A stretch of DNA of 64,000 nucleotides from a bacterium. Lineage in GTDB: Bacteria > Patescibacteriota > Patescibacteriia > UBA1558 > UBA10009. A model generated the notes under the pieces. That model worked only from the letters and a program-made list of their open reading frames with translations, did no database searches and was not told the DNA's origin. Below, piece after piece: positions 1 to 4,115 of this stretch. Made by a program: the position numbers and the translations under genes. Every line of letters starts with the position of its first letter. Position 1 is the first letter of the stretch. The DNA lies in assembly GCA_018672055.1 (NCBI GenBank), contig JABHGM010000001.1, positions 432,679 to 496,678 on the forward strand, given 5' to 3'.

Positions 1-786
1 TGGCTTGGTGAACTTATGTCAGAAAAGAAAATTGGTAATGGTATTTCTTTATTAATTTTTGCTGGTATTATTGCTTCATTACCAAGTGCAGTTCAAAGAC
101 TAATTGCTACTTTTGATGCAACACAAGCTTTTAATCTATTAATCTTCTTAGGTATTGCTATAGTTACTATTGTAGTTGTAGTTATTATTACTGAAGGTCA
201 AAGAAATATTCCAGTTAATTATGCTAGACGTGTTAGGGGTAATAGAATGTATGGTGGTGTAAATACTCATTTACCACTTAGAGTAAATATGGCTGGTGTT
301 ATTCCAATTATTTTTGCAATTTCAATTATATTAATACCTCCAATGATTGCTCAATTTTTTGTTAGCGCAACAACTCCTTGGGTAGCAGGTGGCGCTAGAT
401 TTGTAGTTAATTTATTTCAAAATCAAGTTTTTTACGGCTTATTCTATTTTATAATGGTTTTTGCCTTTACTTATTTCTATACTTTTGTAGTATTCCATCC
501 TCATCAAATTGCTGAGAATTTACAAAAACAAGGCGGTTTTATACCAGGTATTAGACCAGGTAGACATACTGCTGATTATTTACAAAAAACAGCTAACAAG
601 ATATTACTTGCTGGCGCATTATTCTTAGGTTTAATTGCTGTATTACCGATTATTATTCAACCAATTACTGGCATATCCAGTTTAGCTATTGGTGGTACTA
701 GTTTATTAATTGTAGTTGCTGTAGTTATTGAACTTGTTAAACAGATAGACTCTCAACTTACTATGAGAGATTATGATGGATTATAA
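1..786 (+). CDS. secY: Preprotein translocase SecY, C-terminal part; the 5' end lies upstream of the window
   Basis: The frame is open from nt 1 (WLGELM...), and the GNGISLLIFAGI motif and multiple TM segments are typical of SecY. The M at 16 is internal. Confidence 0.9.
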   Translation, partial: WLGELMSEKKIGNGISLLIFAGIIASLPSAVQRLIATFDATQAFNLLIFLGIAIVTIVVVVIITEGQRNIPVNYARRVRGNRMYGGVNTHLPLRVNMAGVIPIIFAISIILIPPMIAQFFVSATTPWVAGGARFVVNLFQNQVFYGLFYFIMVFAFTYFYTFVVFHPHQIAENLQKQGGFIPGIRPGRHTADYLQKTANKILLAGALFLGLIAVLPIIIQPITGISSLAIGGTSLLIVVAVVIELVKQIDSQLTMRDYDGL

Positions 787-840
787 TAAATAGATAATTT
801 ATATATATAAAAAAGCCTCACTCATGTGGGGCTTTTAAGT

Positions 841-1206
841 TTATCCAGTGAATTCACTCAATAATATATAATATTTCTTATCAATTATTATTGGAGGAAT
901 ATTTTTAACAGGAAATAAATGTTTATTTTGATAATCTAATATAACATCTACTAGCATTTTTCCTGGTCCTTCTTGATAGATAAATAATTTATTATTTTCT
1001 TTCCATTCTACTCTAAGAATATTATTATGAATATTACTGATATTATCATAGTCAGCTTTATTATTTAGAGCAGGGTGGTGTTGAGACAGAATCTTGATTG
1101 CCCAACTTGGTCTTTTATCATCAATAGATAGTTCTGGAGCAACCGACTTATTAAAGAAACATCCTGAAAATATTAATATAATGAACAAAAGTCTTAACTG
1201 CTTCAT
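841..1206 (-). CDS. Small lipoprotein, lineage-specific hypothetical
   Basis: N-terminal signal peptide with lipobox IFSGC. A strong SD (AGGAGG) lies 6 nt upstream on the minus strand. Confidence 0.5.
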   Translation of the reverse strand: MKQLRLLFIILIFSGCFFNKSVAPELSIDDKRPSWAIKILSQHHPALNNKADYDNISNIHNNILRVEWKENNKLFIYQEGPGKMLVDVILDYQNKHLFPVKNIPPIIIDKKYYILLSEFTG

Positions 1207-1261
1207 GTTGTCCTCCTATTATTTATTTAATTTTACTTTAGCACTACAGCTTTATTTGTCA

Positions 1262-1331
1262 AATAAAAAAACCATCTTTTGATGGAGGTTGGGTAAGGTG
1301 AAATATCATGTTATTCATAATATTTCACCTT
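1262..1331 (-). terminator. Terminator region after the 1344..1670 gene on the minus strand
   Basis: A perfect 12-bp hairpin aaggtgaaatat/atatttcacctt spans 1295-1331. A small hairpin ccatc-aaaa-gatgg is followed by T8 on the minus strand at 1263-1285. Confidence 0.4.
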
Positions 1332-1343
1332 ACAGTTGTTTTC

Positions 1344-1670
1344 TTACCAGTTTATGGTAAAGGTATATTTTCCGTCATTCCTTCTATGTATAGAAGTTAG
1401 CGGGCCATATCCTTCAGATTCAATCTTGAGAAGATTGAAGTATAGTCTCATATTATACGTATCTATACCTAGGAAGCGAACTTCCTCAAATCCGGTATAA
1501 TCATCACCAACATTAATTAGGACAGTGTCGCTCCATTCTATTCCATTTGAAATGGCTTTGTATAACATCTCTGGCCCTTCGCTTTTGTGCCAAATCCTCT
1601 CTGTTGTTATATGAGTGTCAGCTTGACTGAAACCTAGACTGAGAAACATTATTATTGCTATAACTTTCAT
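1344..1670 (-). CDS. Small secreted protein, hypothetical
   Basis: Signal peptide MKVIAIIMFLSLGFSQA with no other TM segment. A weak SD (AAGGAA) is present. Confidence 0.45.
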   Translation of the reverse strand: MKVIAIIMFLSLGFSQADTHITTERIWHKSEGPEMLYKAISNGIEWSDTVLINVGDDYTGFEEVRFLGIDTYNMRLYFNLLKIESEGYGPLTSIHRRNDGKYTFTINW

Positions 1671-1721
1671 TTCATTTCCTTTTTTTTATTTTTATTTACT
1701 TTAATTTTTTTAAAAAGAATA

Positions 1722-1761
1722 GGTGGGGGAAATTAATTGAATTAATTCACCCCACCCTTTT
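1722..1761. terminator. GC-rich hairpin with flanking T-runs on both strands; possible terminator of a minus-strand transcript from the ORF-free region
   Basis: ggtgggg (1722-1728) pairs with ccccacc (1750-1756) around a near-palindromic AT loop. It is followed by cttttaaaa on plus and attcttttt on minus. Confidence 0.35.
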
Positions 1762-1980
1762 AAAATCACCAGCTCAGCATTTGCTTTAAGGATTTAATGT
1801 CCTTCTTTTGATATATACTCTCAAGAGATGAAAGTACAGTTCTGGTGTTTTATTAAATCAACGCTTGTGTACTATATTTTTTCAGCTGAATTTCCATATG
1901 GGAAATATATATAGCATACGAGTCTCTTACGTTGATAAATGGTGTCCTTTGACCGATAGATTAACAAGTAAACTATCGAT

Positions 1981-2033
1981 TAGATTGAACATTGTAAGGT
2001 ATAAGCTTGTTACACGTTACAATGTTTAATCTA
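1981..2033. repeat. Inverted repeat with 17-nt arms and one mismatch
   Basis: tagattgaacattgtaa (1981-1997) pairs with ttacaatgtttaatcta (2017-2033) across a 19-nt spacer. Confidence 0.6.
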
Positions 2034-2485
2034 AAGTATTTATGTTTATCAACTTTTAGTTATGGAGCGGAAGCAAATTATGTGATCTGCCCCGCTCCAA
2101 AGTGTTGTGACATTTTACTACCACAATTCTGCCTGAGGAATTAATCTTGAACTAAATGGGCATTTAAATGAATATTTCCCAAGTTCATGATTTTAGTAAA
2201 AAGTAATCGCTATTAAGGGAGAAACTCCCAAAATATTGATCTTACTCTCTCCTTCACTTGTTTGTGGAGAGCGAACTCTCCCCAAGCAGGATTGTGATAA
2301 TAATTAGCGTTTTATCGTAAAAAGGCTAACTTTAGATAAATACGTCCCTTAGAGAGTGAATTTAGCTAAAATTAGCCTTATTAGGTATATTCTCTCTCCG
2401 TTATATATTTGGTTTTCAATGTTTAATATAGTAGTATATCATATATACTAAAACTTGTCAAGACCTCTTATTTTTATCTAATTAG

Positions 2486-2494
2486 TGCTATAAT
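2486..2494 (+). promoter_or_regulatory. Extended -10 promoter element TGcTATAAT upstream of adk
   Basis: tgctataat lies 27 nt upstream of the adk ATG. The same element recurs at 8909 and 30180. Confidence 0.35.
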
Positions 2495-2520
2495 AATTAA
2501 AGTTTAAACTTAAAAAAATT

Positions 2521-3144
2521 ATGAACTATATTATTTTAGGAGCTCCTGCCTCTGGCAAGGGAACTCAAGCAGAACTATTATCAAAAAAATTAAATATTCC
2601 ACATATTGCATCAGGGATTATATTACGTGAAAATATTAATAATAAAACAGAACTTGGTTTAAAAGTAGAAGCAATATTAAATAGAGGTGATTTAGTGTCT
2701 GACGATATTGTGATTGATTTAATTAAAAATAGGTTAGAGCAAGGTGATTGTAAGGATGGATATATATTAGATGGTTTTCCTAGAACAATAGCTCAAGCTG
2801 AAGCTTTAGATGGAATAACAAAAATTGATAAAGTAATTGATATAGTAGTTAATGATGATGTAGCTGTTTCACGTATTACTAATAGAAGAATGTGTAAATC
2901 TTGTGGTAATCCATATCATTTAGAATTTAATCCTTCTAAATTAGAAGGTGTTTGTGATAAATGTAATGGTGAACTTTATTTAAGAGAAGATGATAAAGAA
3001 GAAGTAGTTAAAGATAGATTAAAAGTTTATCATGATCAAACTGAGCCATTGAAGGAGTATTATAAAGAAAAAATAATTACTATTGATGGTATACCTAGTA
3101 TAAAGCAAGTAACTGAAAGTATTTTTAAAAATTTACAAATTTAA
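2521..3144 (+). CDS. adk: Adenylate kinase with a zinc-binding lid
   Basis: P-loop GAPASGKGTQ, and a Cys4 lid CKSCG...CDKCNG. Confidence 0.93.
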   Translation: MNYIILGAPASGKGTQAELLSKKLNIPHIASGIILRENINNKTELGLKVEAILNRGDLVSDDIVIDLIKNRLEQGDCKDGYILDGFPRTIAQAEALDGITKIDKVIDIVVNDDVAVSRITNRRMCKSCGNPYHLEFNPSKLEGVCDKCNGELYLREDDKEEVVKDRLKVYHDQTEPLKEYYKEKIITIDGIPSIKQVTESIFKNLQI

Positions 3145-3145
3145 T

Positions 3146-3904
3146 ATGTCAGGTGACGTTACAATAAAAACTGAAGAAGAAATAATTAAACTCAAAGAAG
3201 GTGGTAATATATTAGCTACTATTTTGAGTGAGCTTGGTAAAGCTGTTAAGGTTGGTATTACAACTAAAGAATTAGATCAACTTGCTAGAGATTTAATGAA
3301 AGAATACAAAGTAGAGCCTTCTTTTTTAAATTATAGTGATCCACCTTATCCAGCAGTATTATGTACTTCAGTTAACCAGCAGCTTGTTCATTGTATTCCA
3401 TCAGATTATGCTTTAAAGGAAGGTGATATTATTTCTCTAGATTGTGGTATTTGGCATAAAGGTTTATGTACGGATATGGCTAGAACATTTAGTGTTGGTA
3501 AAATAAGTGAAGAAACTAAGAAGTTATTGAAAGTAACGCGTAAAGCTTTAGAGATTGCCATTGAAACTGCTAAACCTGGAAATACTATTGGTGATTTAGG
3601 CTATAATGTACAGACATATGTTGAACAACAAGGTTTTTCCGTAGTTCGTAAATTAGTTGGTCATGGTGTTGGTTATGAAGTTCATGAGCCACCAGCAGTA
3701 CCTAACTTTGGTAAAAAAGGTGAAGGCATAGCATTTAAAGAAGGCATGGTACTTGCTTTTGAACCTATGGTAAATATTGGTCATCATGATATTGTTACTG
3801 GTTTAAATGATTGGGATATTTCTTCAAAAGATGATAGTTTAACAGCTCATTTTGAAGATACTATAGTTATAACTTCAAAAGGAGCAGAAATAATTACTAA
3901 ATAA
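3146..3904 (+). CDS. map: Methionine aminopeptidase type I
   Basis: Pita-bread fold motifs, with the metal ligands D..D..H..E..E conserved. Confidence 0.9.
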   Translation: MSGDVTIKTEEEIIKLKEGGNILATILSELGKAVKVGITTKELDQLARDLMKEYKVEPSFLNYSDPPYPAVLCTSVNQQLVHCIPSDYALKEGDIISLDCGIWHKGLCTDMARTFSVGKISEETKKLLKVTRKALEIAIETAKPGNTIGDLGYNVQTYVEQQGFSVVRKLVGHGVGYEVHEPPAVPNFGKKGEGIAFKEGMVLAFEPMVNIGHHDIVTGLNDWDISSKDDSLTAHFEDTIVITSKGAEIITK

Positions 3905-3907
3905 AAT

Positions 3908-3936
3908 AAGCCACTAACGTTTAGTGAAAGTGGCTT
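3908..3936. terminator. Weak bidirectional hairpin after map
   Basis: aagccact/agtggctt is an 8-bp stem with a short T-run (cttt). Confidence 0.3.
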
Positions 3937-4060
3937 TCAGCATTGGTGCAAATATTAACCAAAGTAAGATGTTTACTATTTGATAGAATATAGTGAAAAT
4001 AGCAAAACATGGAATTAATATGATTAATATCATACAGTGATACCATTTAGCTGGATGCAT
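3914..4060 (-). CDS. Unannotated 48-aa hydrophobic small protein, below the ORF-track cut-off
   Basis: The ATG is rc of 4058-4060 with a perfect AGGAGG 6 nt upstream. The product MHPAKWYHCMILIILIPCFAIFTIFYQIVNILLWLIFAPMLKATFTKR has one or two TM helices. Confidence 0.3.
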   Translation of the reverse strand: MHPAKWYHCMILIILIPCFAIFTIFYQIVNILLWLIFAPMLKATFTKR

Positions 4061-4115
4061 AGCTTCCTCCTATTATTTTAAATAAATATTAATACATATA
4101 ACATAATAAATCAAG

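Follow-up and report, generated by a model that had tools for sequence, protein, structure and literature searches.

We analysed a 64,000-nucleotide stretch (hereafter the window) of contig JABHGM010000001.1 from the Patescibacteriota assembly GCA_018672055.1, and in particular the gene-free gap at positions 1671–2520, which appears to contain a gene for a structured non-coding RNA (ncRNA). The surrounding genes are arranged in the order rplE...rpsE-rplO-secY, ORF121, ORF108, gap, and adk-map-ruvX-mraY, where ORF121 and ORF108 are minus-strand open reading frames (ORFs) and the gap is the divergent intergenic region between ORF108 and the plus-strand gene adk. An earlier note on this DNA described the region as an ORF-free, hairpin-dense stretch of 840 bp upstream of adk, out of proportion to the usual gene spacing. 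The region is indeed free of ORFs, its longest frames being 54 amino acids from start to stop and 65 amino acids from stop to stop (genetic code 11, both strands), and at 850 nt it is the largest gap of the window, where the median inter-ORF gap is 21 nt and the runner-up 250 nt. It is not, however, a direct neighbour of secY, from which it is separated by ORF121 and ORF108. When TGA was read as sense in a six-frame translation of 1671–2520, no frame was opened, and the ten longest stop-to-stop frames of this region (up to 65 amino acids) had no match in Pfam; an alternative genetic code or a hidden gene was rejected on these grounds. A replication origin was likewise rejected, as DnaA-box-like repeats and a skew inversion centred on the region are both lacking.

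The right-hand part of the gap (about 2045–2461) constitutes an element that is conserved in two sister species besides the window species. One of them is represented by L040, a 1-kb contig that starts at the equivalent of window position 2119 and could be aligned through adk (77% amino acid identity of Adk). The other is represented by L041–L044 (93% amino acid identity of SecY), where a block homologous to window 2055–2462 is located about 130 nt downstream of secY, and where ORF121, ORF108 and any counterpart of window 1671–2054 are missing. Contigs from the same samples as L041, with an Adk 73% identical to that of the window (L003 and L054–L063), start inside an insertion sequence (IS), the other end of which is the right end of L041 (119 nt, 100% identical to L058); because the IS is shared, the gene order in the L041 species is secY, block, IS, and adk. 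The core is 83.7% identical to L041 over aligned columns, compared with 71.8% for the map-ruvX spacer, which served as the neutral-rate control (72% identity to the sister species), and 65–72% for third codon positions. Similarly, window 2119–2305 is 86% identical to L040, compared with 67% at third codon positions of adk. These values indicate that the conserved block is under purifying selection, above the neutral level. Indels of lengths not divisible by three occur throughout the alignment and small ORFs shift frame between the species, thus the conserved element is non-coding. A conserved small peptide was rejected: the short ORFs at window 2193–2285 and L040 96–188 (both on the minus strand) share the residues RVRSP and are then separated by a frameshift.

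The phylogenetic distribution of the element is narrow. Nine SecY/Adk relatives were inspected, and nhmmer and covariance model R1 revealed no homologue beyond the three species; when the covariance model was run over the window plus 16 related loci (164 kb in all), no further copy appeared. Two metagenome pattern scans gave 0 matches and 1 match, respectively, the latter being the known L041 contig. Two loci with SecY identities of 79–80% and preserved secY-adk synteny, L064 and L066, contain no copy of the RNA detectable by nhmmer or by the covariance model. Relatives of Adk are scarce among 5.8 billion proteins, with identities of 77% and 73% and then 57%. By these searches, the conserved element is restricted to a narrow clade. 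The conservation between secY and adk that the earlier note proposed to check is therefore partial: the two sister species keep the core, whereas relatives with about 80% SecY identity are devoid of the RNA. Nor is the originally delimited region a single unit, since about 2045–2461 is shared with relatives and the left 375 nt are not.

The conserved element is preceded on the minus strand by a near-consensus promoter (Table 1), which matches 11 of the 12 hexamer positions, carries an extended −10 TG at −15/−14, and is among the three best promoters in 64 kb. L040 and L041 share both hexamers and the TG unchanged, whereas 3–4 of the 17 spacer bases vary, which is the pattern expected of a working promoter, and the conserved block stops exactly at the −35 hexamer. 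The position of this promoter predicts a transcription start site (TSS) near 2426. Back to back with it lies the extended −10 promoter of adk, which is conserved as TAGTGnTATAaT in L040 and L003. In the L041 species the IS was inserted just past the −35 hexamer of the RNA promoter, leaving both promoters intact, and, since it lies between them, all contigs of this species break there. The IS (L041 6051–6169; L058 208–1215; L003 1–60) encodes an rve-type transposase and has terminal repeats of approximately TACA(T/C)ACATATGGCGGTTT; its left flank in L058 differs from that in L041, so that L058 represents either another copy of the IS or a chimeric assembly.

The 3' end is best defined in L041, where ACCUUAAuUUAAGGU followed by U7 forms an intrinsic terminator hairpin on the minus strand only. 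The resulting RNA would be about 425 nt long; some 100 nt separate its end from the convergent secY terminator, and no gene follows it. The window can be aligned to this terminator segment, but without half of the stem and the U tract (alignment columns 400–443); the terminator is decayed there, and the next candidate is the hairpin at 1721–1757. With regard to strand, the minus strand is more stable by 12–15 kcal/mol in the window and in L041, and the alifold consensus energy is −72.4 kcal/mol for the minus strand versus −64.5 for the plus strand. The minus-strand pairs include 17 G·U and 3 A/C cells; read on the plus strand, the G·U pairs of helices P2 (two invariant U·G), P6 and P7 would be A/C mismatches, and the central hairpin loop reads UUCG on the minus strand. 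From these features the RNA is most likely encoded on the minus strand, divergently from adk, so that it would not be a leader of adk.

The secondary structure was reconstructed with RNAalifold and by three independent single-sequence folds, and the same architecture was obtained in each. The 5' leader is unpaired in all three minimum free energy (MFE) folds. It is followed by hairpin P1, the consensus helix of which is 97% paired with changes from U·G to U-A and from U-A to A-U. The long-range helix P2 comprises 20 bp that are 100% paired and identical in the three species, including two invariant U·G pairs and one C/A mismatch; the 23-nt block TACCACAATTCTGCCTGAGGAAT at its 3' strand is invariant in the window, L040 and L041. 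In L041, P2 is extended by 7 bp owing to a lineage-specific insertion, GUACUUU, which pairs with AAAGUAC located 3' of P2. This helix encloses P3 (CUCUCC/GGAGAG), P4 and P5. The lower stem and internal loops of P4 are invariant, with 11 lower pairs unchanged, and the changes at its tip are partly pairing-compatible. In P5, 6 of the 11 pairs are substituted at both positions with pairing preserved. Hairpin P7 is present in the MFE structures of the window and L041, with a G-C pair replaced by A-U in L041 and G·U/U·G pairs that are kept on the minus strand only.

In total, 96.4% of the alignment pair cells are standard pairs, and seven pairs change on both sides (six of them in P5), compared with 0–2 in slid-partner controls; this number is reached by 4 of 500 shuffles. 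P1, P2, P3 and lower P4, described as never varying, speak neither for nor against the model in this respect. Their invariance on both strands, at a background divergence of 16–30%, argues for a constraint beyond pairing. We consider the support for a real, selected RNA structure to be good for three sequences, and thin by the standards of the field. A separate observation concerns the palindrome GCTAAnnTTAGC (often TTAGCTAAnnTTAGC), which occurs exactly once per related Patescibacteria locus, just downstream of secY, at a chance expectation of 0.18 per 64 kb. In L051, L064 and L066 it is located 12–14 nt upstream of the −35 hexamer of the next plus-strand promoter. The palindrome looks like an operator for a regulator, and within the clade that has the RNA it is part of P1.

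The conserved RNA contains a bistable element, corresponding to the GGAGAG segment (2266–2271) between two CTCTCC segments (2247–2252 and 2276–2281) in which a switch-like arrangement had previously been noticed. In the first state, CUCUCC pairs with the upstream GGAGAG via the UUCG loop (2266–2281), whereas in the second state it pairs with the downstream GGAGAGAG (complement of 2245–2252) to form P3, which frees the upstream GGAGAG tract to complete P2 with UCCUC. All of these tracts are invariant in the three species, and the energy gaps between the forced states are 2.8 (window), 1.0 (L041) and 3.3 kcal/mol (L040), so the mutually exclusive pairing noticed earlier is confirmed and conserved, its states lying only 1–3 kcal/mol apart. 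In addition, the GGAGAGAG tract of the leader is complementary to CUCUCU in the P1 loop, which on reading by eye suggests a candidate pseudoknot. Two substitutions in L040 (A to G and C to U) keep the respective pairs as G·U, so that this pairing is compatible with all three species.

Folding strength was assessed as MFE relative to dinucleotide shuffles. For the whole region the z-scores are −8.28 on the plus strand and −9.48 on the minus strand; for 1671–2035 they are about −7.9 on both strands, and for 2036–2428 they are −4.3 (plus) and −7.6 (minus). The coding controls ORF108, ORF121, adk and map range from +0.9 to −1.4. For the conserved RNA, the minus-strand z-scores are between −7.6 and −9.2 and the plus-strand ones between −4.3 and −5.6. 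All hairpins listed in the earlier note were found where it had placed them: ggtgggg/ccccacc at 1722–1756 (17-nt arms), the inverted repeat near 1981–2033, now delimited as 1980–2034 (25-nt arms, 88% complementary, 18 contiguous plus-strand pairs), the hairpins at 2064–2098 and 2217–2229, and the pairing at about 2322–2380, which is part of the inverted repeat 2318–2383. That list was incomplete, as it overlooked the largest helix, the 20-bp long-range pairing of 2119–2139 with 2279–2299.

Table 1. Features of the secY-adk region of the window and of related loci (positions are those of the window unless a locus is named).
Feature	Position	Strand	Description
5' leader, predicted	2384–2426	minus	Conserved AUUAAACAUU and first GGAGAGAG tract (plus strand CTCTCTCC, 2392–2399)
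P1	2318–2383	minus	22-bp hairpin; apical loop CUCUCU (plus strand AGAGAG, 2351–2356); palindrome GCTAAAATTAGC at 2365–2376
P2, 5' strand	2279–2299	minus	UAUCACAAUCCUGCUUGGGGA, pairs with 2119–2139
P2, 3' strand	2119–2139	minus	UCCUCAGGCAGAAUUGUGGUA, pairs with 2279–2299
Bistable element	2245–2281	minus	CUCUCC is the complement of 2266–2271
P4	2203–2246	minus	Irregular hairpin; tip GGGAG-UUU-CUCCC at 2217–2229, variable
P5	2143–2192	minus	Stem with GGG/CCC clamp around conserved loop (AAAUAUUCA)
P6	2107–2124	minus	Alternative small hairpin, uses GUGGUA
P7	2064–2098	minus	3' hairpin GGAGCGGGGCA / UGCUUCCGCUCC
RNA promoter	2433–2461	minus	−35 TTGACA 2461–2456; 17-nt spacer ending in TGA; −10 TATACT 2438–2433
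adk promoter	2486–2494	plus	Extended −10 element TGcTATAAT, divergent from the RNA promoter
Ancestral terminator remnant	2045–2063	minus	End of homology with L041
Structured extension	1758–2044	minus	Hairpins 1980–2034 and 1954–1978; domains 1857–1936 and 1761–1852
Candidate terminator or attenuator	1712–1757	minus	16-bp G+C-capped hairpin 1721–1757, then UAUUCUUUUU
ORF108	1344–1670	minus	Orphan secreted protein; left border of the gap
ORF121	841–1206	minus	Between secY and ORF108
adk	2521–3144	plus	Right border of the gap
Palindrome, window	2365–2376
Palindrome, L051	1948–1959
Palindrome, L064	11914–11925
Palindrome, L066	8591–8602
Palindrome, L047	6123–6134
secY spacer content, L046	1589–3629		IS200-type Y1 transposase (TnpA) and IS3-type element
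secY spacer content, L064	11434–11847	plus	137-residue ORF (ORF137)
secY spacer content, L066	8280–8480	minus	65-residue Cys-rich short ORF
secY spacer content, L047	6142–8397		secE-nusG-rplK-rplA

Searches for known RNA families, which the earlier note had suggested for the region, were carried out on the region and on a relative. With Rfam 15 at the gathering threshold over the 64 kb, no family was found at the region, and at E ≤ 10 with permissive filters the region, the core and L041 gave only noise (microRNA and small nucleolar RNA families) and terminator look-alikes. For RNase P RNA (RF00010/RF00011), neither the window nor L041 gave a match at E ≤ 10, a P4 strand of the GGAAAGUCC type is missing, and the 5' and 3' ends of the conserved RNA do not pair with each other. 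For transfer-messenger RNA (tmRNA), ARAGORN found none in window 1–4000, and neither an Rfam match nor a tRNA-like end was observed. No Rfam match to signal recognition particle (SRP) RNA or 6S RNA occurs within the RNA; the sole "6S-Flavo" match scores 21 bits compared with a gathering score of 85 and falls on the secY terminator of L041. Riboswitch, T-box and ribosomal-protein leader families were not above noise in the window and L041; a same-strand downstream gene, ORF108, exists in the window and none exists in L041. The original proposal of a candidate structured ncRNA other than tmRNA, RNase P RNA and SRP RNA is supported by these results together with the conservation and covariation in relatives. 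Examined as an independent ncRNA gene, the element shows a sigma-70-type promoter and a covariation-supported structure, in three sequences.

A mobile origin was considered as well. In none of the window, L040 and L041 is the RNA flanked by tnpB, iscB or a gene for a recombinase, and there is no Rfam match to omega RNA or HEARO; the IS200-type TnpA of L046 shares no sequence with the RNA. As regards miniature inverted-repeat transposable elements, only one copy of the sequence was seen in the 64-kb window and in a set of 66 loci amounting to about 490 kb, and its position is syntenic. Comparison with phages and plasmids by blastn gave no match, as did two pattern scans of viral contigs. A mobile or viral origin was rejected, there being no phage, plasmid or viral match and no paralogue in the window. 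A TIGR-type guide array was rejected, since neither tandem nor direct repeats occur in the region.

The left half of the gap (1671–2044), together with ORF108 and ORF121, was found in the window species only. Its structured extension folds with z-scores of about −6 to −7.9 on both strands. No promoter-like site with at least 9 of 12 matches occurs on the minus strand inside the left half; a second promoter was rejected, as the TTGATA in the repeat copy at 2017–2040 lies only 6 nt from a −10-like box. About 40 nt separate the end of the hairpin at 1721–1757 from the start codon of ORF108, and no promoter-like site was found between the two. This hairpin is best read as a terminator or attenuator of the minus-strand transcript; it was not flagged by a simple terminator scan, its stem being interrupted. 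The left half is probably a 3' extension created by decay of the ancestral terminator. The TSS-proximal 27 nt (2414–2440) are repeated with about 80% identity at 2017–2040, in one arm of the 1980–2034 hairpin, and the other arm (1981–1997) is complementary at 14 of 17 positions to the RNA's own 5' leader. Such a repeat could be an insertion footprint or could reflect long-range 5'–3' pairing in the extended transcript.

ORF108 had no match in Pfam, and a phmmer search of 1.8 billion cluster representatives returned ORF108 itself and a 25-residue repeat match in a 2733-residue protein. ORF121 has its own promoter (TTGACA-16-TGcTAAAGT, 1262–1235). Both are orphan exported proteins, with a lipobox (FSGC) in ORF121 and a signal peptide in ORF108, and their 5' untranslated regions are alike (1214–1240 versus 1677–1703, 81% identity). 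The interval between them contains an 18-bp hairpin (1293–1333), a terminator (1272–1285) with a T run, and the ORF121 promoter.

Several further observations concern the wider locus. The genome of the window species has about 29% G+C and standard stop codons, no L30 gene is present between rpsE and rplO, and the locus sequence recurs identically in other assemblies, on contigs of up to 963 kb; SecY relatives carry the labels Patescibacteria, Komeilibacteria or Falkowbacteria, which points to a member of the candidate phyla radiation. The spacer after secY is a gene-turnover hot spot among close relatives (Table 1), and its contents also include the rve IS. In L049 (1020–2499), SecY is only 87% identical to that of the window, but the following 193 nt match window 787–979 without a single difference, which points either to a recombinant strain or to a chimeric low-coverage assembly. 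Between the same two genomes, protein identity is 73% for Adk (window 2521–3144 versus L003/L054) and 93% for SecY (L001 2992–4266 versus L041), so Adk in this clade appears to have undergone unusually fast evolution or replacement. At the start of the map-ruvX spacer (3905–4115, 211 nt) lies a hairpin that resembles a terminator and is conserved (AGCCACTAACGTTTAGTGAAAGTGGCT), and a 48-residue minus-strand ORF was called within the spacer in one assembly (L002 4284–4430).

In our view, the explanation that best accounts for these observations, and a reasonably probable one, is that about 2045–2426 on the minus strand is a stand-alone gene for a structured ncRNA of about 380–425 nt, which acts in trans and is probably bound by protein. 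Transcription would proceed from the near-consensus sigma-70 promoter (2461–2433), divergently from adk and toward secY. The RNA is predicted to fold into the 5' hairpin P1, whose loop is probably pseudoknotted to the 5' GGAGAGAG tract, and then into P2 (20 bp, possibly up to about 30), which would close a three-stem junction of P3, P4 and P5 and be followed by one or two 3' hairpins. Pairing of one CUCUCC tract with either of two GGAGAG tracts would allow two near-isoenergetic conformations. The RNA would act in trans as an abundant, stable molecule with a partner that is most likely a protein, because the strands of P1–P4 are sequence-invariant whereas P5 is constrained only to pairing. In the window species, where the ancestral terminator was presumably lost, polymerase would continue through the acquired stretch of about 330 nt (2044–1758), and the transcript would mostly stop at the hairpin 1757–1721; read-through of that hairpin would express the promoter-less ORF108.

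Several observations weigh against this explanation. The RNA is known from three species, one of them represented by a partial sequence, and most helices are invariant and thus uninformative, the covariation being mainly in P5 and P7. For the truncated L040 fragment, the plus-strand fold is slightly the more stable one (−84.8 versus −76.0 kcal/mol). The palindrome within P1 is also conserved in relatives that lack the RNA, so its conservation may partly operate at the DNA level. Finally, as relatives with 79–84% SecY identity lack the RNA, it appears to be young or dispensable, which weakens any housekeeping role.

An alternative that we regard as unlikely treats the whole minus-strand transcript of 750 nt as a regulatory 5' untranslated region acting in cis, a leader or attenuator for ORF108-ORF121, the expression of which would be decided by the bistable toggle and the 1721–1757 hairpin. 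The two nearly equal conformations, the location of a terminator-like hairpin immediately before a gene with no promoter-like site, and the ability of the hairpin's U tract to pair with the Shine–Dalgarno (SD) region of ORF108 are all in line with such regulation; however, the RNA of L041 possesses its own terminator in a locus without the left half, ORF108 and ORF121. Given that no gene follows the RNA in L041, that ORF108 is an orphan, that ORF121 is served by a promoter of its own, and that known riboswitch and leader families gave no match, leader function could be no more than a secondary role of the RNA, confined to the window species.

Less probable still is a non-functional or DNA-level sequence, whether a decayed mobile element, a pseudogene or a group of protein-binding palindromes, at a hot spot of recombination. 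The content of the secY-adk spacer differs greatly from one relative to another, and the operator-like palindrome GCTAAnnTTAGC is conserved at the locus even where the RNA is absent; for the species-specific left half taken alone, this explanation may hold. P2 superficially resembles 20-bp terminal inverted repeats around 140 bp; however, three of the four mismatches between these "repeats" are G·U-compatible, on one strand only. Moreover, the core combines purifying selection above the neutral level with compensatory changes, is single-copy in the 64-kb window and related loci, and holds a syntenic position in three species, and neither a coding remnant nor a phage or plasmid match was found.

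We assign a low probability to a structured 5' leader of adk on the plus strand (a riboswitch or a protein-binding leader), in spite of the location of the block directly upstream of adk in the window and L040, the plus-strand folding that is also beyond shuffles (z of −4.3 to −5.6), and the greater plus-strand stability of the L040 fragment. A conserved extended −10 promoter belonging to adk itself follows the block, and no conserved plus-strand promoter exists to the left, where the window and L041 have wholly different flanking sequences. Despite the IS that lies between the block and adk in the L041 species, the block is intact there, with compensatory changes. The strand-specific G·U pairs of P2, P6 and P7 and the minus-only L041 terminator further speak against a plus-strand RNA. 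A very divergent RNase P RNA, tmRNA, SRP RNA or 6S RNA missed by Rfam is hardly credible: RNAs of the candidate phyla radiation (CPR) are often atypical, and a size of about 400 nt with a promoter of ribosomal RNA grade would fit a stable housekeeping RNA, but no such family appeared in two species even with permissive filters, ARAGORN found no tmRNA, end pairing and a GGAAAGUCC-type P4 strand are lacking, and housekeeping RNAs are universal whereas syntenic relatives with about 80% SecY identity have no RNA at this locus.

Overall, we conclude that the element is a real, narrowly distributed structured ncRNA and a family candidate of a known general kind, the mechanism of which we only infer. 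More tentatively, and with considerable doubt, it might be the first known example of a class of bistable ncRNAs, large and abundant, in CPR/Patescibacteria; it would have arisen recently in the secY-adk spacer around an older operator-like palindrome, could serve as a decoy for ribosomes or for an RNA-binding protein, and would have been captured as a leader of ORF108 in the window species. As a decoy, the RNA would offer three SD-like GGAGAG tracts and their three CU-rich partners, which would form a pseudoknot and a toggle, the latter exposing or hiding an AAGGAG site. CPR genomes are smaller than 1 Mb and contain almost no spacer DNA; 400–750 nt of non-coding sequence kept under one of the strongest promoters of the window thus suggests a real balance of cost and benefit. 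Relatives that lack the RNA, one that has it together with its terminator, and the window species with the extension and a downstream gene form a natural series that could show the birth and co-option of a structured RNA gene, although the narrow distribution (three species) limits its value. To our knowledge, complex-folded bacterial ncRNAs of at least 400 nt outside known families are rare, and earlier examples of such orphan ncRNAs led several times to new biology.

The putative RNA can be compared with several known systems. With RNase P RNA and tmRNA it has in common its length, a promoter of the stable-RNA type and pseudoknot potential; however, the defining motifs and end pairing are lacking, Rfam and ARAGORN were negative, and the RNA is not universal in close relatives. 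Riboswitch and attenuator leaders share with it the mutually exclusive, nearly equal pairings and, in the window species, the terminator hairpin before a promoter-less gene, but no known aptamer is present, L041 has no downstream gene, and the toggle sits mid-RNA, about 200 nt from any terminator. A strong, probably constitutive promoter (and hence likely abundance), three GGAGAG(AG) tracts and additional GGA motifs, and invariant helices suggesting a protein partner are reminiscent of 6S RNA and of the protein-sequestering RNAs of the CsrB/RsmZ type. Unlike 6S RNA, the conserved RNA does not form a single long helix with a central bubble and has no Rfam 6S match, and unlike in CsrB, where the GGA motifs are in hairpin loops, those found here are mostly inside stems. 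OLE, raiA, ROOL, GOLLD and HEARO, Rfam families of intricately folded RNAs that comparative genomics brought to light, differ from it in that no sequence or structure match to them was found, no link to partner genes was seen, and it is known from only three species, a far thinner basis. Like these RNAs, however, it measures several hundred nucleotides and has many helices, one of which closes a junction of several stems over a long range; it has its own promoter and, in L041, its own terminator, has a narrow range, and was recognised as an unusually long, structured and conserved intergenic region.

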